Assembly (NCBI GenBank): GCA_964448115.1
Contig: CAYUVA010000019.1
Span: 57,447-77,446, forward strand
DNA: 20,000 nucleotides
Direction of reading: 5' to 3'
DNA from: an uncultured bacterium
GTDB lineage: Bacteria > CAYUVA01
This document shows, piece after piece, positions 4,972-19,834 of this stretch. The translations under genes and the position numbers were made by a program. Under the pieces are notes generated by a model. That model saw nothing but the letters and a program-made list of their open reading frames with translations. It ran no database searches and was not told where the DNA came from. Numbering within the stretch: position 1 is the stretch's first letter; each line of letters opens with the position of its first letter.

Positions 4972-7900
4972 CTACCTGAACTCGAAGCGGAACTTTAGTT
5001 CGCCGCCGAAATTGCCCAGCTCGTTGCGCTTGCCCACCAGCACCATGTTGTCGGAAACCTCGTATTCTAGCATTATCAGCGATGACTTGTTGGAGCCCAT
5101 CTGCGTGGAATAGAGCACATAAATATTATCAGCCAACTTTTTCCCAACCGTCAGCCTCGCTGCTGTCATGCCGCTAGATTGCTCTGTCTCGGCTACTGGC
5201 TCTATTCGGAAGCGATCCAAGCCGATCATCTGTGCACGTTTCTCTATCTGATTGGTCAGGTAAGCAGAAGCTAGCGAGGCAGCCTGGGTGGCCATGGTGG
5301 CGTTCCCGGATTCTCCTTTGAGGCTCTCCATTGTCTTGCCAGTAAAAAGCAGCGCAAAGCGATCCACCTCTGGCATTGCCGGGTCGCTGTCCAGGTTGAC
5401 CATGAAGTTGGTGTAATAGCTGCCGCTTACGCTCAGGGTTAGCCTTACATTGTCAATGATACTGGTAGCCCTGAAATCGACCGTCGGGTTTATCTTGACC
5501 GGGTCGATGAAGTCAACCACTGCCGATTCGATGGTGAACTCGTTGTTCCACAGGATCAACTTTCCCTTGCTCGCCTCGATTCGCCCGAAGATGCGCGGTG
5601 AGTCGGTAGTTCCCTGCACCATAAGATCCGCATCCATATACATATTAGCCACATCGTTATCGATTATTATGCTCTGGGGAGCGAGTATATGGATATTGAG
5701 TCGCGGGTTGAAACCGCCGCTTTTCGCCTTTTCCTCGCTCACTCGCCGAGCGGTTACTATGCTCATGCCGGACTCGAAGATCATGTAATTGGGATTGATA
5801 TCCTTGGTGATGCGCAGGCGGTCGATGTTGACCTCCCCTCCTATGTTCATATCCTCAAGGTTGCCGATTATGTTTAGCTTGGCGTGGCTTTTGATAGAGA
5901 GCACCTGTGGCTGGCGGATGCTTATATCCTTTGCCTCAACGATAATATCAACAAAATCAAGCTTAGCGCCATCGAGATTGATGAACCCACTGGTAGAGAT
6001 ATTACCTCCCCCTAAACTCGCCCCCAGTTCCTTGATATTAACCTGATTGCCATCAAAGGTGATGTTCCCCTTGAGATTCTTTACCATCTCCGGGAAGCCG
6101 ATGTACTTGAAGGAGCAGTCATCGAAGGTGATGTTCCCAAAATACTGTGGCGTTTTAGTCGCACCGCTCAGCCGCATCTTGGCATTTATCACCCCCTCGG
6201 TAGCGCCGATGCTCTCCACGAACAGCCCAGCTATATCGAGCTTGATGTTAGAGCTTGCGGTCAGGTCAGCAGATCCCTCCAGATCTGCGCTCCCGGATAG
6301 GGACAAATCGATATAATCGCCCCTAAGGTGGAATGAATCGATCACCATGCGGTTATCCTTGAGCGATACCACCAGTGGTTGCGGATTGTTTATGCCTAGG
6401 TTCATATAATTGAAGTTCAGGTCGCTTATATTAAGCTGCGCGGTCAGGTCTTTTATCTCCAAAAGCTTCCCGTGTACTGATACAACCCCCTGTATGCTTC
6501 CTCTAGGCAGCGAGGAGCTTGTATCCAGAGCCATTGCAGCCAGCGGCGCAAGATCCAGGCGGTTGAACTTGAGATCGAGATCCATAGGCATCTTGTCATT
6601 TAAGGATAATAAGCCATCTATGGTAAGTTGCCCTTGAAAGAGCTGCCCCTTTATACTCGCCTTGTCTCCCTCCAACTTTAAGGCGAGGTCCATGGTTTGC
6701 AAGTCTTTGTTATCGTAAACCAGGTCGTTTAGCTTTATGGCTAGATAAAGCAAAGGCTCCCCGAAGCTCCCCAGCCCCTTGCCTTGTATGTTGAGCTTGC
6801 CAGCGATGGGAAGATCCGCTTTGTCCGGAGGCAAAAGAGACTTCAGTTCCATATCCGCACCGCGCAGATTCAGTGCAAAAGTGTCATCATAGCTAAGCAT
6901 AGCATCCGCCTCGATCGTATTACCCGATTTGGTTATCGACAGCCTGCTTATCTTGATATTGTCGCCATCAGCGCTGAAAGCGACCTTTAGTTCATCAATC
7001 TTCTGCTCGTAGAATGTCGAGCCTGCCAGGTTGATATTCCCGTTCAGTGCTAGGTTCTCGTCCTCCATGTTCAGGCTTGCGATAACATATAGCTTGCCGG
7101 GCTTGATAGCCTCCATCCCCAGCCTGTTTAGCACCGGCTGCGCGGTGAATTCATTTATTGCCAGTTTAGCCTCGATGGCAGGTAGCCCGTCCAAAGCGGA
7201 GTGGATGGCAGCCAGCCGGCTCTTTTTTGTCCCCTTGCGTGTGCCGAGCTTAACCCGTTTTTTAAGATCGACCAGCGCACTTGCAAGCATCTCCTCCTGT
7301 CCGCTTAGGAGCTGTAGCTGGTGCACGGTGAGCTTGTCATCAGCATAGCTAGCCTCCAAGCCGAGCAGGTCGAAGCTCTTGCCATAGACGCTACCCTCTG
7401 TAAAATTGAGCTTCAGCGTCGCCTTGGGTGCATGGATGTTTCCGCCGGCGATGATTCGTCCCTGGTATGCACCGCCTATGCCTAAGCTAGCCAACATCTG
7501 TTCCTGATCTTGAGGAACTTCACTACCAAGTTTCAGCAAGATATTGTCAGCGATATCGACAAGCGGCTTAAGTGAGTCTCCGTTCAGCTTGATATCGACA
7601 TCGAACAGCCCATCCATATCATACTTGCCACTGATAAGGATCTCCCCATGCATTGGAGTTATTCTTGCCTGGCGTAGCTTGACAACCTTCCCCTCCAAGG
7701 CGGCGTCGATGAAAGCTGATAGTTGTGGCTCCTTGTAGCCTGAAAGAGAACCTGTAAGCGAGGTCTTGACTCGTGCTTTGATCGAATCGGGATTGAAATC
7801 GGGCAATTCAATTGAGAGGTCGCCATCGATCTGTCCCCTGTACTTTATCGGCAGGGGAGCGATTTTCTCCAACTGAGCTGCACGAACACCATTGATTGTT

Positions 7901-9045
7901 ACTTTTGTGGAGAGCCCCCGTTTGTCCCCATCGGTGGCGATCTGTGCATCTGCCCTGATGGTACCACCCAGCGCCTTGAGTGAAAGATTCTCCAGCGCCA
8001 GCATTCCGTCATGCATGGTAAATAGCCCAGCCAGGTCTTTAAGCTCGATCCCTTTTGCAGCAAGCCGCTTGCAGCCGATGTCAACTGCCATATCGAGATT
8101 ATCCGCTCTCCCCGAGATGCTTCCCTTGAGCGCAACCTTGCCATCCATTTCAACAGGCAAGGGGTAAATTGCTGAAACTGAGGCGAGGTCGATGGTTGCA
8201 CTCAAGTTCAGATCGAGCAGAGGCGGTGCGAAGCCTTCCATTTCAAGAGCCTTTACATGTAAGTCAACTCCACCGCCTACTCGACTTATGTTGAGTGAAA
8301 GATCCTCGATTCCACTAGGGCTGAAGGCGAATGGACTTGTGCTTAATCCTACGGTTACATCGATATCCCCGAGCTTGTACCTGCACCTGCCGATTTCGAT
8401 GCGACACGGATTGAAATGCCCCGGCTCGGACTGGTTCAGGGAAATGCTTCCATCATCGACCTTGATCATCATCCCAGAGCCTTTATCCTCGAAGAGATAT
8501 CCGAGCCTTGTAATAGAGACCTTCAATGGATGCACCTTGGCAAATATGCCCTTAAGCACCTCGGTTACTGGATCAACGCCTGACTTCATTGCTCCAGGTG
8601 CTGTTTTATCCTCAAGTGATGAGCTTTTGTGAGAAGCATTGGCTCCAAATGCCAGGTTTATGTTGCCATTTTGGTCAAAGAGGGTTGAGAAGTAAGGTCT
8701 TCTTATCTCAACGACATCGAGTACCACCATTCCCTTGAGCAGCTCTTTGATTCTCGCATCGACATGGAGGTATTCGACTGATGCAAGGGTTCTCTCCTCG
8801 AAGCGGGGCGGATTTTCAAGCACCACCTCCCGCAGGGTAACTTCGGCGCTGAACAGATTGACATACAGTTCGCCGATAGTGGCTTTGATGCCGGTATTTG
8901 ATTCGAGCGCAGATAGCGCTTTACCAGCTATCGCGTTCTGCAGGGCTGGCAGGTGGAATAGGCTGATAAGCGATATGAATAACAGCAGGATCGATGCAGC
9001 AATAATCGCAATCGCTTTTACTGTGTATCTGAGATATCTAATCAT
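4972..9045 (-). CDS. tamB: Translocation/assembly module TamB (AsmA-like) family protein
   Basis: 1357 aa with a single N-terminal TM anchor and long repeating beta-strand/Gly pattern. C-terminal DUF490-like region ('DLMVQGTTDSPRIFGRI', 'NPTVDFRA', 'LDSDPAMPEVD..ALLFTG', 'RLTVGKKLADNIYVLYS', 'LEYEVS') ending in the beta-strand GELKFRFEFR. Confidence 0.88.
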   Translation of the reverse strand: MIRYLRYTVKAIAIIAASILLLFISLISLFHLPALQNAIAGKALSALESNTGIKATIGELYVNLFSAEVTLREVVLENPPRFEERTLASVEYLHVDARIKELLKGMVVLDVVEIRRPYFSTLFDQNGNINLAFGANASHKSSSLEDKTAPGAMKSGVDPVTEVLKGIFAKVHPLKVSITRLGYLFEDKGSGMMIKVDDGSISLNQSEPGHFNPCRIEIGRCRYKLGDIDVTVGLSTSPFAFSPSGIEDLSLNISRVGGGVDLHVKALEMEGFAPPLLDLNLSATIDLASVSAIYPLPVEMDGKVALKGSISGRADNLDMAVDIGCKRLAAKGIELKDLAGLFTMHDGMLALENLSLKALGGTIRADAQIATDGDKRGLSTKVTINGVRAAQLEKIAPLPIKYRGQIDGDLSIELPDFNPDSIKARVKTSLTGSLSGYKEPQLSAFIDAALEGKVVKLRQARITPMHGEILISGKYDMDGLFDVDIKLNGDSLKPLVDIADNILLKLGSEVPQDQEQMLASLGIGGAYQGRIIAGGNIHAPKATLKLNFTEGSVYGKSFDLLGLEASYADDKLTVHQLQLLSGQEEMLASALVDLKKRVKLGTRKGTKKSRLAAIHSALDGLPAIEAKLAINEFTAQPVLNRLGMEAIKPGKLYVIASLNMEDENLALNGNINLAGSTFYEQKIDELKVAFSADGDNIKISRLSITKSGNTIEADAMLSYDDTFALNLRGADMELKSLLPPDKADLPIAGKLNIQGKGLGSFGEPLLYLAIKLNDLVYDNKDLQTMDLALKLEGDKASIKGQLFQGQLTIDGLLSLNDKMPMDLDLKFNRLDLAPLAAMALDTSSSLPRGSIQGVVSVHGKLLEIKDLTAQLNISDLNFNYMNLGINNPQPLVVSLKDNRMVIDSFHLRGDYIDLSLSGSADLEGSADLTASSNIKLDIAGLFVESIGATEGVINAKMRLSGATKTPQYFGNITFDDCSFKYIGFPEMVKNLKGNITFDGNQVNIKELGASLGGGNISTSGFINLDGAKLDFVDIIVEAKDISIRQPQVLSIKSHAKLNIIGNLEDMNIGGEVNIDRLRITKDINPNYMIFESGMSIVTARRVSEEKAKSGGFNPRLNIHILAPQSIIIDNDVANMYMDADLMVQGTTDSPRIFGRIEASKGKLILWNNEFTIESAVVDFIDPVKINPTVDFRATSIIDNVRLTLSVSGSYYTNFMVNLDSDPAMPEVDRFALLFTGKTMESLKGESGNATMATQAASLASAYLTNQIEKRAQMIGLDRFRIEPVAETEQSSGMTAARLTVGKKLADNIYVLYSTQMGSNKSSLIMLEYEVSDNMVLVGKRNELGNFGGELKFRFEFR

Positions 9046-9374: not shown

Positions 9375-10835
9375 ATGATTCGATTGGGCTTTAAATTGAT
9401 GGTGGTCTCGATTGTTGGAATAACGATGCTTGCCTTTAATGGCGCATGGTGCGATACAGTGAGCGGAATCGTTTACCACGATAATGACATAAGCTCACGA
9501 AGCCATTACTTCCAGGCTTACGATGATGCTGATTCGCCGATACCTGATATGACAGTGGTTCTCCATGGGGCAGATACAAGTAAAACTACCCTGACCGATG
9601 CTCAAGGTGAGTTCATCTTTGAAGGCTTAGAGCCTGGATACTACCTTCTGGAGATAAAAGATCCGACAAATCATCGCTGCACAAGCACTAATCTTGCTCG
9701 GAGAGTGGCTGAGGCGATAAAAATTGATGGACATCTCGAGATCCTTTCCATCGGCGATAGCATCTCGGTGGAGGGAGCCGAATACCCTTTTCCGCAGCGC
9801 TTGCGCGATCACCTGGCGAACATCACCGAGGTTACCCTTTTCAACCAGGCGATCGGTGGCAGCAAATCCTTTGACTGGCTACCCGGGGCGCAAAAGGCAT
9901 ATTTCGAGAACAGGCTGTTGCCTTATATCGAGCAGGCAGACCTGGTTACCATCACCCTGGGGGGAAATGACCTTGATTTTCTGGTCGAGGGATTAGAGCC
10001 TCCGTTTACGCCAGAGATGATCCTTGAGATGATCATCACCCTGCTGGAGAACCCGGAGATAATCACTGGCATAATGGAGAATGTGCGCACCCTGGTCTAT
10101 GAGATCCATAAGCTCAATCAAAGCTGCGATGTCATCTATGTCATCTATCCCTGCTTTGCGCGAAGCGACCATATAAGGAAGTACACCGGGGAGGCATTGC
10201 AGCCGCTGGCTATAGCAGCCATGGAGCTTGGCTTGCGCATGTTGCGAAATTATCAGCACGAGACCGAGTGCCTGCTGCTAGGCGATGCATTTGCTTATAA
10301 TGGCACTGATGACATCACCGAGCTGCTGGTCGATGAGGTTCATCCCTCCGCTGCCGGCGCCCAGCAGTATGCGGACCTCATCTTCGAGACCATAGGCGGG
10401 GTGATAGTCGGTGAAGAACGGCTGGGGCAAAGTCGTATGGTCGGTCTTTATGCGCCGGATGCGGTACACTCGCCGACTCCGACATCGACGCCGACCAGTA
10501 CACCGATGCCCTCTCGGACTCCGACGCCAAGTGCCACGCCTACGCCGACCCAGACTCCAATGATACTGCTCGCTGGCTGGTGGGATAGCTATGTAACCTC
10601 GAAGCATGGGGGAAGGTTATCATTGTATGCCCTGGCTGATTTGCCTTTAGGCTTTCGGATCGAGCTATATTATCAAGGCTTAAGCACGGGCGTATATCTA
10701 GAATACTCCAGCGGAGAGCTTTATGTTAAGGACTTCGGGGTGCTTCCCGGTGGCTTACCGCCGGGAGAATGGCTGATCGAGCTTGCCGTGGATGGCATCA
10801 GCCGCTGGCCGGTGCTGAAGGTTTATCTTGATTGA
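9375..10835 (+). CDS. Secreted SGNH/GDSL hydrolase with SdrD-B/Cna-B-like domain, Pro/Thr linker and shared C-terminal domain
   Basis: Signal peptide (MIRLGFKLMVVSIVGITMLAFNGAWC). SdrD-B-like 'VSGIVYHDND...TTLTDAQGEFIFEGLEPGYY'. SGNH blocks GDSI, IGG, GGND, DEVHP. PT linker at 10470-10559. Purine-rich RBS upstream. Confidence 0.88.
   Translation: MIRLGFKLMVVSIVGITMLAFNGAWCDTVSGIVYHDNDISSRSHYFQAYDDADSPIPDMTVVLHGADTSKTTLTDAQGEFIFEGLEPGYYLLEIKDPTNHRCTSTNLARRVAEAIKIDGHLEILSIGDSISVEGAEYPFPQRLRDHLANITEVTLFNQAIGGSKSFDWLPGAQKAYFENRLLPYIEQADLVTITLGGNDLDFLVEGLEPPFTPEMILEMIITLLENPEIITGIMENVRTLVYEIHKLNQSCDVIYVIYPCFARSDHIRKYTGEALQPLAIAAMELGLRMLRNYQHETECLLLGDAFAYNGTDDITELLVDEVHPSAAGAQQYADLIFETIGGVIVGEERLGQSRMVGLYAPDAVHSPTPTSTPTSTPMPSRTPTPSATPTPTQTPMILLAGWWDSYVTSKHGGRLSLYALADLPLGFRIELYYQGLSTGVYLEYSSGELYVKDFGVLPGGLPPGEWLIELAVDGISRWPVLKVYLD
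10470..10559 (+). repeat. Pro/Thr/Ser low-complexity linker (coding)
   Basis: SPTPTSTPTSTPMPSRTPTPSATPTPTQTP, encoded by degenerate ACN-CCN repeats. Confidence 0.9.
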
Positions 10836-10917
10836 TGGAAAGCCGGTAATAGGCTTGAGGCTTAAGCAAGGGCTTCTAAAAAATTTTCCTTCTTTTCCAA
10901 GCTAAAGGCTAAAGGTA

Positions 10918-10948
10918 TTGACATTTGTTTTTAAATGATAGATATTAT
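10918..10948 (+). promoter_or_regulatory. Possible promoter for the lipoprotein gene
   Basis: TTGACA at 10918-10923 in an AT-rich region. TATTAT at 10943-10948 gives a non-optimal 19-bp spacer. Confidence 0.4.
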
Positions 10949-11061
10949 GGTTGTAGTAAGTTCAAGGGTGACAGAATCACTGAAACAATGGCGGAGAAGG
11001 CTATATCTAAAGCAGATAAAGGCGTTCACGCCAGGACTAATTCTTTAAGGAGGAGAACCAG

Positions 11062-11658
11062 ATGAACAAACGAACATTCCCGGTTGTTCTCGCTTTATTC
11101 TGCTTCAGCGCCCTGATTATCATCGGATGCGGGGGCGGTCCCCAGCACAAACCTCCAGAATGGGTTTACAAGAAGCCGGTGGAGAAGGGAGTCCTTTATG
11201 GACGCGGCTGCGCTGATAGCATGGTCAATTACGAGCTAACTAGCGAGAAGGCAGAACAGATGGCAAGAGCTGATATAGCACAAGCTCTCGATGTCAGGCT
11301 TCGCGGAATGACGGTTAACTGGGCAAAGGAGAGCAAGGAACTGTTCGATAAGGCAGGTTACTCGGTATCCAAGTTCGAGCGCAATATTGACAGTGTATTC
11401 TCAACAAGACTAATGGGTGCACAGATCGTCGAGTGGTACGAGTTCCCGGATACGGGGAGAACCTGTGCCCTCTGCAAGTTGGATACCCAGGCAGTAAAGT
11501 CCATTATCATGGATATGCAGGAGATGGTTAAGGGCTTGGTTGCAACCGCCAAAGAGGGCAAGGAGCTTTCCGAGGAAGAGATCGTCAAGATCGATGCTCA
11601 AGCCGCCGATTTTCGTGATAAGATGGATACAGTGCTCAAGGATCTAGGCTTGGAATAG
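11062..11658 (+). CDS. LPP20-like lipoprotein
   Basis: Strong RBS TAAGGAGGAG, lipoprotein signal with lipobox IIG-C, and 'PPEWV...LYGRGCA...KAEQMARADIAQAL' pattern typical of LPP20-family proteins. Confidence 0.75.
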   Translation: MNKRTFPVVLALFCFSALIIIGCGGGPQHKPPEWVYKKPVEKGVLYGRGCADSMVNYELTSEKAEQMARADIAQALDVRLRGMTVNWAKESKELFDKAGYSVSKFERNIDSVFSTRLMGAQIVEWYEFPDTGRTCALCKLDTQAVKSIIMDMQEMVKGLVATAKEGKELSEEEIVKIDAQAADFRDKMDTVLKDLGLE

Positions 11659-11688
11659 AGCCAAAGTAACTTGTTTTTCAGAACCAAT

Positions 11689-11720
11689 AGGCTGTTCCCT
11701 ATAGGGGAGCAGCCTTTTTT
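11689..11720 (+). terminator. Rho-independent terminator after the lipoprotein gene
   Basis: AGGCTGTTCCCT-ATA-GGGGAGCAGCCT stem-loop followed by a T-run (11715-11720). Confidence 0.88.
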
Positions 11721-11772
11721 CATTGACCTTGAACAAGTGCAATGGAGGGGGAATTTGCATAAATGAGATTCA

Positions 11773-11781
11773 TGTTATAAT
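11773..11781 (+). promoter_or_regulatory. Extended -10 promoter element for the metallophosphoesterase gene
   Basis: TGtTATAAT at 11773-11781. It supports ATG 11804 rather than TTG 11723 as the true start. Confidence 0.55.
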
Positions 11782-11803
11782 AAATTTAGAGCTGGATGAA
11801 CAA

Positions 11804-13630
11804 ATGAGAATCGATGGCATAGAATATGAGCACAGGGCATTGCCTAGCCTTGTCTTTGTGTTTTGCCTGGTATTTGCTAGCCTCCTCGAGGCTGCGATCA
11901 TCAAGGGTCCCTATCTTCAGAATGTAAGAAAAGGCGCTATTACGATATGCTGGGAGACCGAGAACGACTCCAAGGGAACCATTTATTACGGGCCAACCCC
12001 GGATTACTTATTCCAATACACGGAGAGCTTTGCGAAAAAGAACCACGAGGTTACCCTGAGCAACCTTAACTGGTCATCGCTATATCATTACAAGGTGGTA
12101 TGCGACGGCACAGAGACAGAGGACTACACCTTCCGCACCGCTGCTTTGCCTGGTGAGCCATTCAAGGTCGTAGCTTACGGGGACAATCGCACCAACGATG
12201 GCGATCATCAAACGGTTGTCGATGCGATCCTCTCCCATGCACCCGATCTCTTGCTTAACACTGGCGACCTGGTCGAATGGGGTTTCAATCCCAGCCTGTG
12301 GCAGGCTTTTTTCAACATAGAGCAGCCATTGATCTCTGAATCACCCCTCTACGCTGCCTTCGGCAATCATGAGATAGGTGGCAACCTTTTTTGGGAACGC
12401 TTTTTCAGCTTTCCGACCGAAAGCTCCGGCAATGAGCACTACTATTCCTTCGAGTATGGCAATGTAAACTTTATCTGCATCGACTCCACAACCTTGGTAG
12501 TTCCCAGTGGCGCACAATATGACTGGCTGGTCAGCAGCCTACAATCGGCAGCCGCCAAGCCTCATATAGATTTCACCATCCTTTTTTTTCATTATCCTGT
12601 CTATAGCTGCGGCAATCATGGAAGTAACACCTTCATGCAACAGATAGTCAAGCCGCTCTTAGAGGAGTACGAGATTCCGCTGGTCTTCAACGGGCATGAC
12701 CACGATTATGAGCACGCCCTGGTAAACGGCGTGAACTACATAGTTACCGGCGGAGGTGGAGCGCCTCTTTACGGCGTCGATCCCCAGGAATGGACTATCT
12801 ATGCTGAGAAGACCCTGAATTTCTGCGTGCTTGATGTCAGCGGTCCCACCATCAACTTCACCGCCTACCGCCCGGATGGCACAGAGATAGAGTCCTTCAT
12901 TGTTACCGCGCCACCGACCACTCCACCGACCATGACGCCAACGCCAACCCCGACCGATACATTCACGCCAGCGCCGACAGCTACTGCCACCTTCACCGCC
13001 GCTCCCACCTGCGATATTGAGATAGTCAATGATTTCATCGAGCTTTGCGTGCCGGGCAGTGGAGAGCCGACAAGTGCCCAACTGGAACTCGGTGGCAGCA
13101 TCTGTATCGGAGATGTAATACGATTCTCAAGCTCTGATCCCGCTATCGCCACCGTAGGAGAGTCAAGCGGATTAGTACAAGCGGTCTCACCAGGCGAGGC
13201 GAGCATCGAAGCCAGGTGCCTCGATTGCGTTGATACCGCGCAGGTAAGTGTGAGGGATTGCAACCACTCCCCCACACCTACAACGACTCCAACCTCGACC
13301 ATAACACCCACCCCAGCCACCTGTCCGGCTATACTGCTCGGTGGATACTGGCAGACCAGGCTGAACAGCCCTTACGAGGGGACTTTGAACTTGGTAGTTT
13401 ATATTAGCGATAGCATTGACCAGGTTGGAGTCTATTACCAGGGCGAGGCGACCGGCTTCTATCTTTATGATGATGGCTACAGCGGGGACCTGTCGCCGGG
13501 CGATGGCTTCTACGGCATTCGCCTCTTTGTCCCTGATGGAATGCCACCGCTTAAGGCTCTGCTAGAGGTGAAAGCAAAGCGTGGATCAATGTTCAGCCAG
13601 CCCTGGCCTTACCTGGTTTCGCAACAGTAA
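11804..13630 (+). CDS. Secreted metallophosphoesterase (purple acid phosphatase-like: FN3 + calcineurin-like domain) with PT linkers, Ig-like (Big_2) domain and shared C-terminal domain
   Basis: Signal peptide ending LLEA/A. 'KGPYLQNV...ITICWET...HEVTLSNL....YHYKV' FN3 domain. Metal-ligand motifs GDNR, GDLV, GNHE, FHYP, GHDHDYE. Big_2 motif 'FSSSDPAIATVGESSGLVQAVSPGEASIEA'. Start reassigned from TTG 11723 to ATG 11804. Confidence 0.9.
   Translation: MRIDGIEYEHRALPSLVFVFCLVFASLLEAAIIKGPYLQNVRKGAITICWETENDSKGTIYYGPTPDYLFQYTESFAKKNHEVTLSNLNWSSLYHYKVVCDGTETEDYTFRTAALPGEPFKVVAYGDNRTNDGDHQTVVDAILSHAPDLLLNTGDLVEWGFNPSLWQAFFNIEQPLISESPLYAAFGNHEIGGNLFWERFFSFPTESSGNEHYYSFEYGNVNFICIDSTTLVVPSGAQYDWLVSSLQSAAAKPHIDFTILFFHYPVYSCGNHGSNTFMQQIVKPLLEEYEIPLVFNGHDHDYEHALVNGVNYIVTGGGGAPLYGVDPQEWTIYAEKTLNFCVLDVSGPTINFTAYRPDGTEIESFIVTAPPTTPPTMTPTPTPTDTFTPAPTATATFTAAPTCDIEIVNDFIELCVPGSGEPTSAQLELGGSICIGDVIRFSSSDPAIATVGESSGLVQAVSPGEASIEARCLDCVDTAQVSVRDCNHSPTPTTTPTSTITPTPATCPAILLGGYWQTRLNSPYEGTLNLVVYISDSIDQVGVYYQGEATGFYLYDDGYSGDLSPGDGFYGIRLFVPDGMPPLKALLEVKAKRGSMFSQPWPYLVSQQ
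12905..13009 (+). repeat. Pro/Thr linker 1 (coding)
   Basis: TAPPTTPPTMTPTPTPTDTFTPAPTATATFTAAPT. Confidence 0.9.
13268..13321 (+). repeat. Pro/Thr linker 2 (coding)
   Basis: SPTPTTTPTSTITPTPAT, immediately before the shared C-terminal domain. Confidence 0.9.
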
Positions 13631-16220: not shown

Positions 16221-16961
16221 ATGAACAAAGAAAATAAAAAGGTGCTGATCGTAATTCCCACCTACAACGAGAGGGATAACATAAAAAGGCTTATCGAGGA
16301 GATACTCGGTATCGATCCCGGATATTACATCCTGGTAGTCGATGATAAATCTCCGGATGGCACCTGGGAGATGGTGCGGGATTTAGAAAAGCAAAATCCG
16401 CAGGTTAAACTGCTGCTTAGAGAGGGACCTCGTGGTCGTGGCTTGGCGGGAATAGACGGCTTCAGGTATGCCTTGGACCTTGGCGCTGATTATATTATCG
16501 AGATGGATGCAGATTTCTCACACCATCCGAGGTATATACCCGACCTGCTCAAGGGTCTTGAAAACGCGGACTTCGTTCTTGGCTCGCGCTTCGTGCCCGG
16601 CGGCAAGGATATCGAGCGAGGCATTCATCGGAAGCTGATCAGCAAGCTGGCAAACGGATATGCCAGGTGGCTTATGGGGGTTAAGATAAGGGACTGCACA
16701 TCCGGATTCCGTGCTTACCGCAGGCAAACCCTGGAGGGGATCAAGATTTCTGAGATCACCACCTGGGGACCTGCCGTGCTTAGCGATATTTTATACCGAA
16801 TCCAGCTTAAGGGCTACAGCATGGCAGAGGTGCCGATTACATTCTATGAGCGCTCTGCCGGCCAATCGACCCTGACCGCCAGGATACTGCTCGAAGGCTT
16901 GTGGAATATACTTCGTCTTAGGCTTGCAAAGCGAAGAATTTTGAAAACATTGGAGCGCTGA
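16221..16961 (+). CDS. Polyprenol monophosphomannose synthase-like glycosyltransferase (GT2, DPM1-like)
   Basis: 'IVIPTYNERDNI', 'VVDDKSPDGT', 'EMDADFSHHP', 'VLGSRFVPGG', 'DCTSGFRAY', 'EVPITFYERSAGQS'. Confidence 0.9.
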   Translation: MNKENKKVLIVIPTYNERDNIKRLIEEILGIDPGYYILVVDDKSPDGTWEMVRDLEKQNPQVKLLLREGPRGRGLAGIDGFRYALDLGADYIIEMDADFSHHPRYIPDLLKGLENADFVLGSRFVPGGKDIERGIHRKLISKLANGYARWLMGVKIRDCTSGFRAYRRQTLEGIKISEITTWGPAVLSDILYRIQLKGYSMAEVPITFYERSAGQSTLTARILLEGLWNILRLRLAKRRILKTLER

Positions 16962-17001: not shown

Positions 17002-17502
17002 TTACTTGAAGTTCTTGAACATTATTATAGCATCCTCGCCGTTGTCGAGATAGTAGCCCTTCTTTATTCCCGTCTCCTTGAAGCCGAGGCTCTTGTAGAG
17101 CCTTCTAGCAGTATAGTTCGATGGACGAACCTCCAAAAAGCAACGATTAAAGCCGTAATCCCTGCAATAGCTAAGGCACCTGTTCATCAAGAACCTGCCA
17201 AATCCCATGCCGCGATAGGGCTTATCGACCGCCAGGTTAATGATATGTACAACACTCACCTGGTCAACGAAAATGATATATCCATAGATCTCTTTTAGAG
17301 CTTGCTTGTTCACCAGCAGCCAGGGATGCACGATCGGGTGAACCAGTATCTCCTCGATGTAGAACTTTCTGCTCCAGGGGCTTGGATAACAAGCCTGCTC
17401 TATCTCCATAACTCGCTCCAGGTCAGGGTACTGCATGGGGCGGATGGTCAGATCACTGGGATCAATGTAGTGGCTCCCCCTATTTTGTTGTTCCACTGCC
17501 AT
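17002..17502 (-). CDS. rimI: Ribosomal protein S18-alanine N-acetyltransferase (RimI family GNAT)
   Basis: 'IEQACYPSPWS', 'HIINLAVDKPYRGMGFG', 'FLEVRPSN..ARRLYKSLGF...G..KGYY...GEDAIIM'. Confidence 0.9.
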   Translation of the reverse strand: MAVEQQNRGSHYIDPSDLTIRPMQYPDLERVMEIEQACYPSPWSRKFYIEEILVHPIVHPWLLVNKQALKEIYGYIIFVDQVSVVHIINLAVDKPYRGMGFGRFLMNRCLSYCRDYGFNRCFLEVRPSNYTARRLYKSLGFKETGIKKGYYLDNGEDAIIMFKNFK

Positions 17503-19834
17503 TATTGCTTCCTTTGAGCAACTTCTCTAGCCGGTGAGCGATGTCCCGATATTGTCGATTGATCCTAGTTCGATTGCCCTCTAGGCTTCTAATGCTACCA
17601 TCTTTAGCCAAGTAATTACAAGCATCGGCGATCTTCTCGGTAGAATAGTAATCGAGAGCCTTCTTTATGTGTCTCCAGGCAACCTCACGCTCTGGATGAA
17701 TGCTAACTGCCTCAAGCAACCTTTCCAGGCTTTCTTTGAGCCGGTCGCTGCCGGCGAACAGATCCCCTTGCTCACAGTAAACCTCATAAAGCAAGTTTTG
17801 GTCGATATTATTGGCAGCAAGCACACTATTTAGGGTCTGCTCGGCTGCTTTCTTTTCTAAGAGCAGGTATAGTATCTTTCCCTTTTTCACCTGTAGCCAT
17901 AGGTTTTCAGGTTGAAGGCTGATCGCTTTATCTATGGCTTGCAAGGCATCTCTCTTCTCCCCCCGCAAGATATGGATCTCTGCCATCAAATCCCAGTATT
18001 GGTGCATCTCCTGGTTAATGACATCGCTTCCATGCAGCAGCTCGATGACCTTTTCCCATCGTTTCGTAGCCAGGTATGCGGAGGCAAGCTCCAATAGAAG
18101 CGGAAGGGGAAATACCTTCCCTTTGATCTTGTACTTTCTTTGAATAGCTTCGAGAAAGCGAATTTCCCTGCCCAGTTTCCCGATACTTCGATAGCCCTCA
18201 GCTATCCCAAGTATAAGTTGAAAATTATCGGCATCCAGTCGGGCTGCTTTCTTGTAGAGCTTGACCGAGGATTCATACTCTCCACGCCTGGCTAAAAGCT
18301 CTGCTGCCATTGAGATAGCCTTGATTTTCCTAGGCTCGACCTTGATCGCAAAGCGCAGCGTCTCCAACGCCAGGTCATGCTTGCCTAGCCCTATCGCAAT
18401 CTGCGCGCTCTCGCAAAGCTCATCGTATTGCCTAAGCTCCTGGAAAGGGTTCTTTATGCCGAGCAATCTGACCAGGCGGTATAGTGCCCGTAGCCTTTTT
18501 CTCCGCTCCAGGAGCGTATTTCCTCCATCGCTGGTGTACCAATAGTCCGAGTTTAGCGAATAAGATCCCTCCACAATACCGAAGCGCCGTGGATGGTTGT
18601 AAACCGGGGTTCTCTCAATGACAGCCAACATGCCGATGGAGCCGATGCTCTGTATCCGATTTCGGTGCTTGATCAGGAACCAGAATGTCTTGAGCAGGTC
18701 CCAGCGTGTCTCTCCTGGGAAACCGACCAGAAGATTGATATCGATGCCCAGCCTTGCCTTGCGCATATCCTTAAAGACCCTATCCACGGTCTTGAGGTTT
18801 TGGTTTTTGTTCATCAGCTTGAGCACCTTAGCGCTTCCGCTCTCGATGCCGAAGTCTAGCGATGTGCACCCCGCCTTTTTCATCTTGCGCAAAAGCTCGA
18901 TATTCATCGCCCGCATGGCGCGAGCATTGCCGCCCCAGGAGAACTTGTAACCACCCTTGATAATAAGGTCGCAAAGCTCATCCAGCACCTTCGGATTGCC
19001 GTTGATCAACTGGTCGGTGAAGCTGTAATTGGGAATGCGGTATTGCTGGTAATGTTCGACCATCTCCTTATAGATATTCTGTGCGCTCCGGGTGCGATAT
19101 TTCTGCCACAGCGCCTTCTCCGGGCAAAACGAGCATGAGTATGGACAGCCGCGACTGCCCAATATCGGCATCACATTGCTATGCTGATAAAGCGAGAAGT
19201 CGTAGTCGCTGAAATCAGGAAAGGGGAGGGTGTCGAGATCTGGGATTAAAGAACGCGGGGGAGATTCGATGACCTCGCCATCACGCTTTATGATCGCTCC
19301 TGGCATCGGCTCCAAGACCCGGTTGCGCTGAATGGCTCTCGCCAGCTCAACGATGGTCTGCTCCCCCTCTGAGAATACCACCGCATCGACCTGGGGCGCC
19401 TTTATTAGCGACCTGCCCCGTATGGCAAGGGAACACTCCGGTCCCCCGAAGATGATAATTGTTCGTGGATTCTCTTTTTTTATCATTTCAGCCAGGTGCA
19501 GGCTGTAAAGACGATTTGCGCAAAATACCGAGAACCCAACTGCATAAGGTTGTTTGTCAAGGATCTCCCTTACCCAGAGCCGATTTTTCTGCTCGAATCT
19601 GATCTTAAGTTCAGCGAAATATGTCTCATACTCCCAGAGGTGGTAGTAGTTGTCCTCCCAGTATTTTTTAAAATCTGGCTCGATCCTAAAATAAAGGTCG
19701 ATGCTCAAATCACTAGCCTGTACAGAATATTCGGCAGCTCGCAGGCTTGAGCTGATATATGCAAGCCCGATCGGAGGACTAGGCAAGCCCCACGGTGGAG
19801 CCATCAACAAGATGAAATCGCAATTTTCAGACAT
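17480..19834 (-). CDS. Cobalamin-dependent radical SAM enzyme with C-terminal TPR repeats
   Basis: B12-binding N-domain ('PPIGLAYISSSL', 'VGFSV', 'IIFGGPE', 'EGEQT'), CxxxCxxC 'RGCPYSCSFC', 'GIESGS', 'LVGFPGET'. C-terminal ~300 aa of TPR-like helices ('GEYESSVKLYKKAARLDADN', 'GEKRDALQAIDKAISLQPEN'). Confidence 0.9.
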   Translation of the reverse strand: MSENCDFILLMAPPWGLPSPPIGLAYISSSLRAAEYSVQASDLSIDLYFRIEPDFKKYWEDNYYHLWEYETYFAELKIRFEQKNRLWVREILDKQPYAVGFSVFCANRLYSLHLAEMIKKENPRTIIIFGGPECSLAIRGRSLIKAPQVDAVVFSEGEQTIVELARAIQRNRVLEPMPGAIIKRDGEVIESPPRSLIPDLDTLPFPDFSDYDFSLYQHSNVMPILGSRGCPYSCSFCPEKALWQKYRTRSAQNIYKEMVEHYQQYRIPNYSFTDQLINGNPKVLDELCDLIIKGGYKFSWGGNARAMRAMNIELLRKMKKAGCTSLDFGIESGSAKVLKLMNKNQNLKTVDRVFKDMRKARLGIDINLLVGFPGETRWDLLKTFWFLIKHRNRIQSIGSIGMLAVIERTPVYNHPRRFGIVEGSYSLNSDYWYTSDGGNTLLERRKRLRALYRLVRLLGIKNPFQELRQYDELCESAQIAIGLGKHDLALETLRFAIKVEPRKIKAISMAAELLARRGEYESSVKLYKKAARLDADNFQLILGIAEGYRSIGKLGREIRFLEAIQRKYKIKGKVFPLPLLLELASAYLATKRWEKVIELLHGSDVINQEMHQYWDLMAEIHILRGEKRDALQAIDKAISLQPENLWLQVKKGKILYLLLEKKAAEQTLNSVLAANNIDQNLLYEVYCEQGDLFAGSDRLKESLERLLEAVSIHPEREVAWRHIKKALDYYSTEKIADACNYLAKDGSIRSLEGNRTRINRQYRDIAHRLEKLLKGSNNGSGTTK

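Follow-up and report, generated by a model that had tools for sequence, protein, structure and literature searches.

What does a domain do that ends two otherwise unrelated exported enzymes? This question is raised by a stretch of 20,000 nucleotides from an uncultured bacterium (contig CAYUVA010000019.1 of assembly GCA_964448115.1, positions 57,447 to 77,446 of the forward strand; hereafter the window), in which the genes for an SGNH/GDSL hydrolase and for a purple-acid-phosphatase-like metallophosphoesterase, both predicted to be exported, finish with copies of one predicted immunoglobulin (Ig)-like domain behind linkers rich in Pro and Thr (PT linkers). A preliminary description of the window had proposed a lineage-specific secretion or anchoring domain. 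Our analysis retains the lineage-specific family, while the sorting-signal half of that proposal is weakened by N-terminal, internal and tandem copies of the domain and by the failure to find a machinery; the domain is used in a modular rather than a signal-like way. The interpretation that we tentatively favour is a non-catalytic tethering or targeting module, which may be used in the manner of carbohydrate-binding modules (CBMs), dockerins or S-layer homology (SLH) domains. The two genes and their parts are as follows:

9375..10835, plus strand: SGNH/GDSL hydrolase gene, predicted to be exported and ended by the domain, 486 aa (open reading frame and Pfam)
10470..10556, plus strand: PT linker of the SGNH protein (regular expression on the translation)
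10557..10832, plus strand: predicted Ig-like terminal domain, copy 1, 92 aa (stop codon at 10833-10835)
11804..13630, plus strand: purple-acid-phosphatase-like metallophosphoesterase gene, predicted to be exported, 608 aa from the ATG at 11804
12905..13009, plus strand: first PT linker of the metallophosphoesterase, from the catalytic part to Big_2 (regular expression on the translation)
13268..13324, plus strand: second PT linker of the metallophosphoesterase, immediately before the terminal domain (regular expression on the translation)
13325..13627, plus strand: predicted Ig-like terminal domain, copy 2, 101 aa (stop codon at 13628-13630)

The SGNH protein matches Lipase_GDSL_2 at residues 126-330 (E 4.6e-12) and CarboxypepD_reg at residues 50-104, and the metallophosphoesterase contains the Pfam domains Pur_ac_phosph_N, Metallophos and Big_2. 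The catalytic domains therefore belong to different Pfam families and are unrelated, as had been claimed. The sole significant BLASTP segment between the two enzymes is the terminal domain (residues 388-481 against 528-631; 35% identity over 105 columns, E 2e-7), and the two domains aligned alone are 38% identical, which agrees with the earlier view of a homologous C-terminal domain placed after PT linkers. The hydrophobic, signal-like segments at the N-termini of both enzymes were judged by eye and not by a dedicated predictor. The open frame of the metallophosphoesterase (11723-13630) would give 635 aa from its first TTG (11723), and an identical protein of 608 aa in the sequence collection points to the ATG at 11804 as the most likely start. 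The two genes had also been said to share DNA at the start of the domain. The 10-mer ATACTGCTCG does occur at both starts (10563 and 13331), where it encodes the common I-L-L. It is present a third time, at 16884, within an unrelated gene; 0.06 copies are expected from shuffles.

To count the domain in the source genome (3.98 Mb, 94% complete) we used profiles. The one built from the two window copies gave at least 150 matches, and a hidden Markov model iterated to convergence over all stop-to-stop open reading frames (ORFs) of at least 80 aa found 200 copies in 162 ORFs, the domain being carried by 161 of 3028 crude gene calls (about 5%). Copies are roughly 100-105 residues long and share a mean pairwise identity of 31%, so that they appear to be old and diverse. 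In 143 of the 162 ORFs (88%) no more than 10 aa separate the end of the last copy from the stop, and 97 of the 200 copies are directly preceded by 30 residues of which at least 40% are Pro or Thr, compared with 9.5% of random 30-mers from the same proteins. A signal-like N-terminus was detected in 147 of the 153 family ORFs with an intact 5' end; the crude rule used for this also passes 48% of other long ORFs and so shows enrichment only. The picture of many paralogues, mostly with a C-terminal domain, behind a PT linker in about half of the copies, and on signal-peptide proteins within the limits of that rule, agrees with what had been predicted from two genes.

The remaining architectures are informative. 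In five ORFs the domain is N-terminal, lying directly after the signal peptide and before the cargo, and in four of these a PT linker follows it directly; the cargo is a GH31 protein, an FGE-sulfatase and an FG-GAP plus FGE-sulfatase protein, the other two having no Pfam match. Fourteen ORFs carry the domain internally or with further sequence after it, and in six of them a PT stretch and then another module follow. Multiple copies occur in 36 ORFs: pairs in 35 and four copies in one. In tandems, the second copy lies behind a linker of another, non-PT type, about 40 residues long, in which a W..L...KG pattern recurs by eye. A DMFA2_C-like protein (C1:74032-76482, L111) has two copies and then a tail of 72 residues with a hydrophobic segment and a basic stretch by eye, and it is the sole family member seen with an end resembling a membrane anchor.

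The family had been expected to be phylogenetically restricted, and we found it in three candidate phyla. The source genome, the sole one of its own phylum among those examined, carries it (1/1). Among 40 other bacterial genomes, kin of the source genome only at the rank of domain, one (G022) has 22 real matches, two have a single weak partial match and 37 have none. In the phylum of G022, which we take to be CSSED10-310, the domain occurs in 11 of 14 genomes with 4-37 matches each, and in a third candidate phylum (that of G046) in 7 of 7 genomes with 15-28 matches each. A pattern scan of a species-representative collection, with a 5-row domain alignment as query, gave 12 loci, including metagenome-assembled genomes (MAGs) of candidate division CSSED10-310 and Candidatus Coatesbacteria, and two partial matches in Bacteroidales and Balneolaceae. 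In a library of 1.84 billion representatives the number of matching clusters is 1875 at an E threshold of 1e-3 and falls to 746 at 1e-10, which makes this a rare family. In the main text of a short CSSED10-310 MAG paper (PMC8248873), none of six envelope or secretion terms was found.

To describe the cargo, we took a random sample of 40 from the 153 family ORFs with an intact 5' end and, after excluding one 60-aa fragment and the window metallophosphoesterase, scanned 38 against Pfam at 1e-5. The diversity that had been predicted is evident. Peptidases are represented by Peptidase_C25 with its propeptide (3), Peptidase_S8 and caspase C14, and other enzymes by purple-acid-type metallophosphatases (2), an AhpC/TSA redoxin and a GHL10 plus Amidase_2 protein. 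Repeat and other domains comprise Kelch plus CBM96, BNR, FG-GAP (2), PKD, lactonase-type propellers (3), DUF1565 and DUF7901, and 16 of the 38 have no match. With about one gene in twenty carrying this tag, its role, whichever it is, would organise most of the exported enzymes of the organism (peptidases, phosphatases, esterases, glycosidases). These exported proteins are strongly acidic throughout, the cargo having a median of -6.6 net charges per 100 aa compared with 0 for all gene calls, which could reflect the habitat or cation-rich surroundings. We rejected acidity as a property specific to the domain, since the cargo is nearly as acidic (-6.6 vs -7.8 for the domain, per 100 aa).

A terminal domain on such a range of enzymes could be a sorting signal for an outer-membrane translocation or surface-attachment machinery, analogous to the C-terminal domain (CTD) of type IX secretion system (T9SS) substrates and possibly linked to a secretin. 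We consider this explanation unlikely, although several observations agree with it. The position of the domain does so in the source genome and likewise elsewhere: 119 matched proteins from outside the source genome comprise 115 with a full copy, in which the domain lies at most 10 aa from the C-terminus in 89, internally in 24 and N-terminally in 2, and four with partial matches only (a sample that consists almost entirely of the 150 best-scoring representatives, is dominated by two-copy proteins and may include truncated metagenomic ORFs). The cargo also fits, because Peptidase_C25 (3 of the 38 ORFs) and S8 are typical T9SS cargo classes. Further, the source organism is a diderm, with a TamB gene in the window and, in its genome, four Omp85 genes and six genes with secretin domains. 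The latter (C1:34975-35454, C1:64168-64668, C40:16550-17065, C15:33634-34113, C14:67854-68366 and C6:67058-67525) seem many for a 4-Mb genome and suggest several systems of the type II secretion system (T2SS) or type IV pilus type.

The domain itself is unlike a T9SS CTD, as the preliminary description had maintained. PF18962 (Por_Secre_tail) gave no match at E 1 or better in 42 paralogue copies and no match in the source genome, and hhalign of the 42-copy profile against 18 genuine T9SS CTDs from a control genome returned a probability of 0.2%. The machinery was checked with profiles of SprA/Sov and PorV, PorU and GldKLMN lying outside this check. Neither SprA nor PorV was found in four domain-bearing genomes (the source genome, G022, G041 and G042), whereas a Balneolaceae genome used as positive control (G043) gave SprA at 1512 bits, PorV at 285 bits and 34 Por_Secre_tail domains. 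We therefore rejected T9SS CTD identity. The same comparison can be turned in favour of a sorting signal of another kind, since the source genome has no T9SS CTDs where the control has 34, and the domain fills that niche numerically.

What weighs against a sorting signal is the architecture of the family, with five N-terminal, fourteen internal or followed and thirty-six multi-copy ORFs, together with the results of our searches for associated components. The source genome has no sortase match and one partial exosortase-family match without visible link to the domain, and the proteins lack a transmembrane helix plus basic tail. No cleavage motif was found, no conserved motif being apparent by eye in 60 of the 200 stretches preceding the domain. 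No family is enriched among the neighbours of domain genes in the source genome (best uncorrected p 6e-3), and no co-distributed machinery gene was found, full phylogenetic profiling across genomes not having been run. It is quite improbable, in our view, that the domain is the address tag of a new protein-sorting pathway in the three candidate phyla, acting through a new attachment machinery or a secretin system. Were it true, a tag acting through a secretin system would constitute a modular, transferable secretion signal of T2SS type, and we know of no such signal defined for T2SS; the small stand-alone domain protein described below would then be a core component or regulator of the pathway.

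The fold was examined on copy 2 of the window. An AlphaFold2 model from the 42-copy alignment is an all-β sandwich with a mean predicted local distance difference test score (pLDDT) of 93.4 and a predicted template modelling score (pTM) of 0.84, to which DSSP assigns six strands of at least 3 residues and short strand fragments near the C-terminus; on this model we are confident that the domain is an Ig-like β-sandwich. Three motifs mark the family: PxIxxGY (first strand), DDGxxGDxxAGDGxY (the loop that joins strands 4 and 5) and WPYLxV (last strand). The nearly invariant columns are P1, G7, Y8, A25, G44, L47, D49, G51, D55, D60, W94, P95 and L97. From its motif, the Asp-rich loop may bind Ca2+. 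With the single-domain model, Foldseek retrieved nothing from the PDB at E 1e-3 or better, and VIA-align gave generic Ig/FN3 matches (best Z 7.7), among them FN3-like modules of glycosidases (Z 6-7). A profile search against PDB sequences yielded one spurious match (E 0.15), and look-alikes in the ESM Atlas were unnamed clusters alone (0.86 or lower).

Scans of the window copies and of the 42 paralogues against Pfam and NCBIfam found no full-length match to a characterised family, as the preliminary proposal required. No convincing Pfam family emerged for the window copies or for the 42 paralogues, the best being Big_7 in 4 of the 42 at E 0.0023 or weaker, and no CBM family appeared among the matches of the 42 at E 1 or better. 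The SGNH copy, which matches the paralogue profile at E 1.5e-16, has no Pfam or NCBIfam match. The NCBIfam model NF041940 (choice-of-anchor X), which has 37 positions and a curated cut-off of 25 bits, matches the DDGxxGDxxAGDGxY loop in 38 of the 42 copies (E 1 or better; best E 1.1e-8). Genome-wide it matches 74 copies at E 0.01 or better, about 50 of them above the cut-off, and most matches span about 20-25 model positions out of roughly 104 domain residues. The metallophosphoesterase copy scores 17.6-18.3 bits, below the cut-off, and the SGNH copy has no match. The family therefore overlaps the model, and these two members stand outside it. The name choice-of-anchor X was not found in the literature searched, and among the titles and abstract openings listed for papers that use "choice-of-anchor" none concerned this domain.

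So generic a fold invites the explanation that the domain is a passive, structural Ig-like cap or spacer, which would protect the end of the leash or aid folding or solubility and would have spread by domain shuffling. We hold this to be improbable. In its favour, the Ig/FN3 sandwich is generic, the conserved positions look mainly structural, the copies are old and diverse, and internal Ig domains from other phyla contain the choice-of-anchor X loop as well. One example is a Bacteroidales protein of 765 aa (L081:2645-4942), which has an internal Ig domain with a GDFAAGDGFYG loop and, by eye, a T9SS-like tail, and in which the loop domain is thus used internally in a phylum that has T9SS. On the other hand, a spacer would have no reason to occupy the extreme end of 88% of the ORFs, about 5% of gene calls carry the domain, and a small stand-alone protein bears it.

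This small stand-alone frame (171-264 aa) encodes a signal peptide and a short divergent stretch ahead of the domain, and 9 of the 11 positive CSSED10-310 genomes have it as their best-scoring match. The source genome has one as well (C4:99847-100407, equal to L083:5848-6408; E 4e-36), which is not its genome's top match. Five such proteins share a similar architecture:

L083:5848-6408, L084:5688-6287, L085:5495-6163, L086:5532-6185 and L087:5491-6129, strand not stated: stand-alone proteins of 186-222 aa

In these proteins the stretch ahead of the domain is divergent, spans about 60-100 residues and contains a single helix-like W..L motif. The presence of a stand-alone protein in most positive genomes speaks for an independent function of the domain. 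Synteny around this protein is common to close CSSED10-310 relatives only; the one neighbour that extends further is the housekeeping gene of a FabF-type ketoacyl synthase.

The stand-alone protein could also be read as a scaffold. Copies of the domain would then bind each other or such a scaffold, and the domain would be an assembly module for cellulosome-like complexes or a surface coat, which we find very unlikely. It is consistent with this idea that a small stand-alone member is present in the source genome and in most other domain-bearing genomes examined, and that a tandem pair is modelled as one compact unit with a linker helix (pLDDT 88, pTM 0.85; Foldseek with this model gave generic Ig/FN3 matches alone, at a template modelling score of 0.27 or lower). 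Nevertheless, no scaffold with multiple receptor modules was identified, and within one protein the tandem copies resemble each other (36% identity) no more than they resemble other copies (31%), the partner having a median rank of 51; in a tree of copies, first and last tandem copies form no separate clades. A homodimer prediction of the domain gave no answer (score 0.00) and counts neither for nor against self-association.

We return to the tethering or targeting module that we favour. In the mechanism we envisage, the protein would first be exported, by Sec and then possibly through one of the secretin systems. Its folded domain would then attach to a ligand common to the family, located on the cell envelope, in the matrix or on a particulate substrate, perhaps with Ca2+ in the Asp-rich loop of the domain, and the bound domain would hold the enzyme on its PT-rich leash. 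Two observations favour a tether. The first is a pair of TlpA/AhpC-type redoxin paralogues (L083:6436-7020 and L043, that is C18:50382-51656; 36% identity, E 3e-25) with different attachments, one having a lipobox Cys and an N-terminal PT leash and the other the terminal Ig-like domain. The second is that a lipobox is rarer in the domain family than outside it (6/147 vs 95/1014, odds ratio 0.41, p 0.04, by a crude rule). PT stretches seem to be general tethers in the source organism.

Several points weigh against this interpretation. No ligand or partner has been identified, neighbouring genes offering no enriched family; most of the nearly invariant positions and the Asp loop look structural; and the acidity of the domain (median net charge -8) is not specific to it, the cargo parts being nearly as acidic. 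The 88% C-terminal bias fits a sorting signal too, and typical CBMs are less strongly C-terminal than this.

Three other genes of the window deserve mention. Between the two enzyme genes lies one of them:

11062..11658, plus strand: small lipoprotein-like gene, 198 aa, outside the domain family

Its product has a weak LPP20 match (24.5 bits, under the cut-off of 25.9). Directly upstream of the SGNH gene, and divergent from it, is a TamB/AsmA-family gene (4972-9045, minus strand, 1357 aa), which is consistent with a diderm envelope and has no evident link to the domain. At 17480-19834 (minus strand) a protein of 784 aa combines B12-binding and radical SAM domains with about 200 residues of tetratricopeptide repeats.

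A terminal Ig-like module on a flexible leash is of a kind already known, and this one overlaps a named but uncharacterised NCBIfam motif. What is new here is the census, the N-terminal and tandem architectures, the exclusion of T9SS with a positive control, the range over three phyla and the conserved stand-alone member. In diderms where no T9SS was found, the family provides a clean and testable example of a lineage-specific terminal tag, and the domain profile could be used to annotate exported proteins of the three candidate phyla and help to find the partner.

Among known systems, those that rely on a short terminal signal differ from the domain. Unlike PEP-CTERM and LPXTG proteins, those described here end 0-10 aa after the last strand, without a transmembrane helix and basic tail. 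Choice-of-anchor domains, in NCBI naming, precede a separate anchor. In the source genome nothing follows the domain in 143 of the 162 ORFs, while L111 and, for the loop domain, the Bacteroidales protein do have an anchor-like tail behind it by eye; NF041940 covers the loop alone. T9SS CTDs, like the domain, are Ig-like sandwiches of about 80-100 aa at the extreme C-terminus of unrelated exported diderm enzymes, C25 and S8 peptidases included. However, a T9SS CTD is single and obligately C-terminal, and the domain is N-terminal in 5, internal or followed in 14 and multi-copy in 36 ORFs. It also differs from dockerins, having no Pfam dockerin match in the window copies and the 42 paralogues and being modelled as all-β and not as a helical pair. 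CBM and dockerin systems are further set apart by the cargo, which here is mostly not carbohydrate-active, and by a cohesin-like partner, of which none was found. In its use, nevertheless, the domain resembles them, as a terminal, non-catalytic module of about 100 aa on a PT leash, placed at either end of the enzyme, sometimes duplicated and possibly provided with an Asp-rich loop of Ca2+-binding type, much as in the Cellulomonas and Clostridium paradigms, in which CBM and dockerin modules are joined to enzymes by Pro/Thr linkers.

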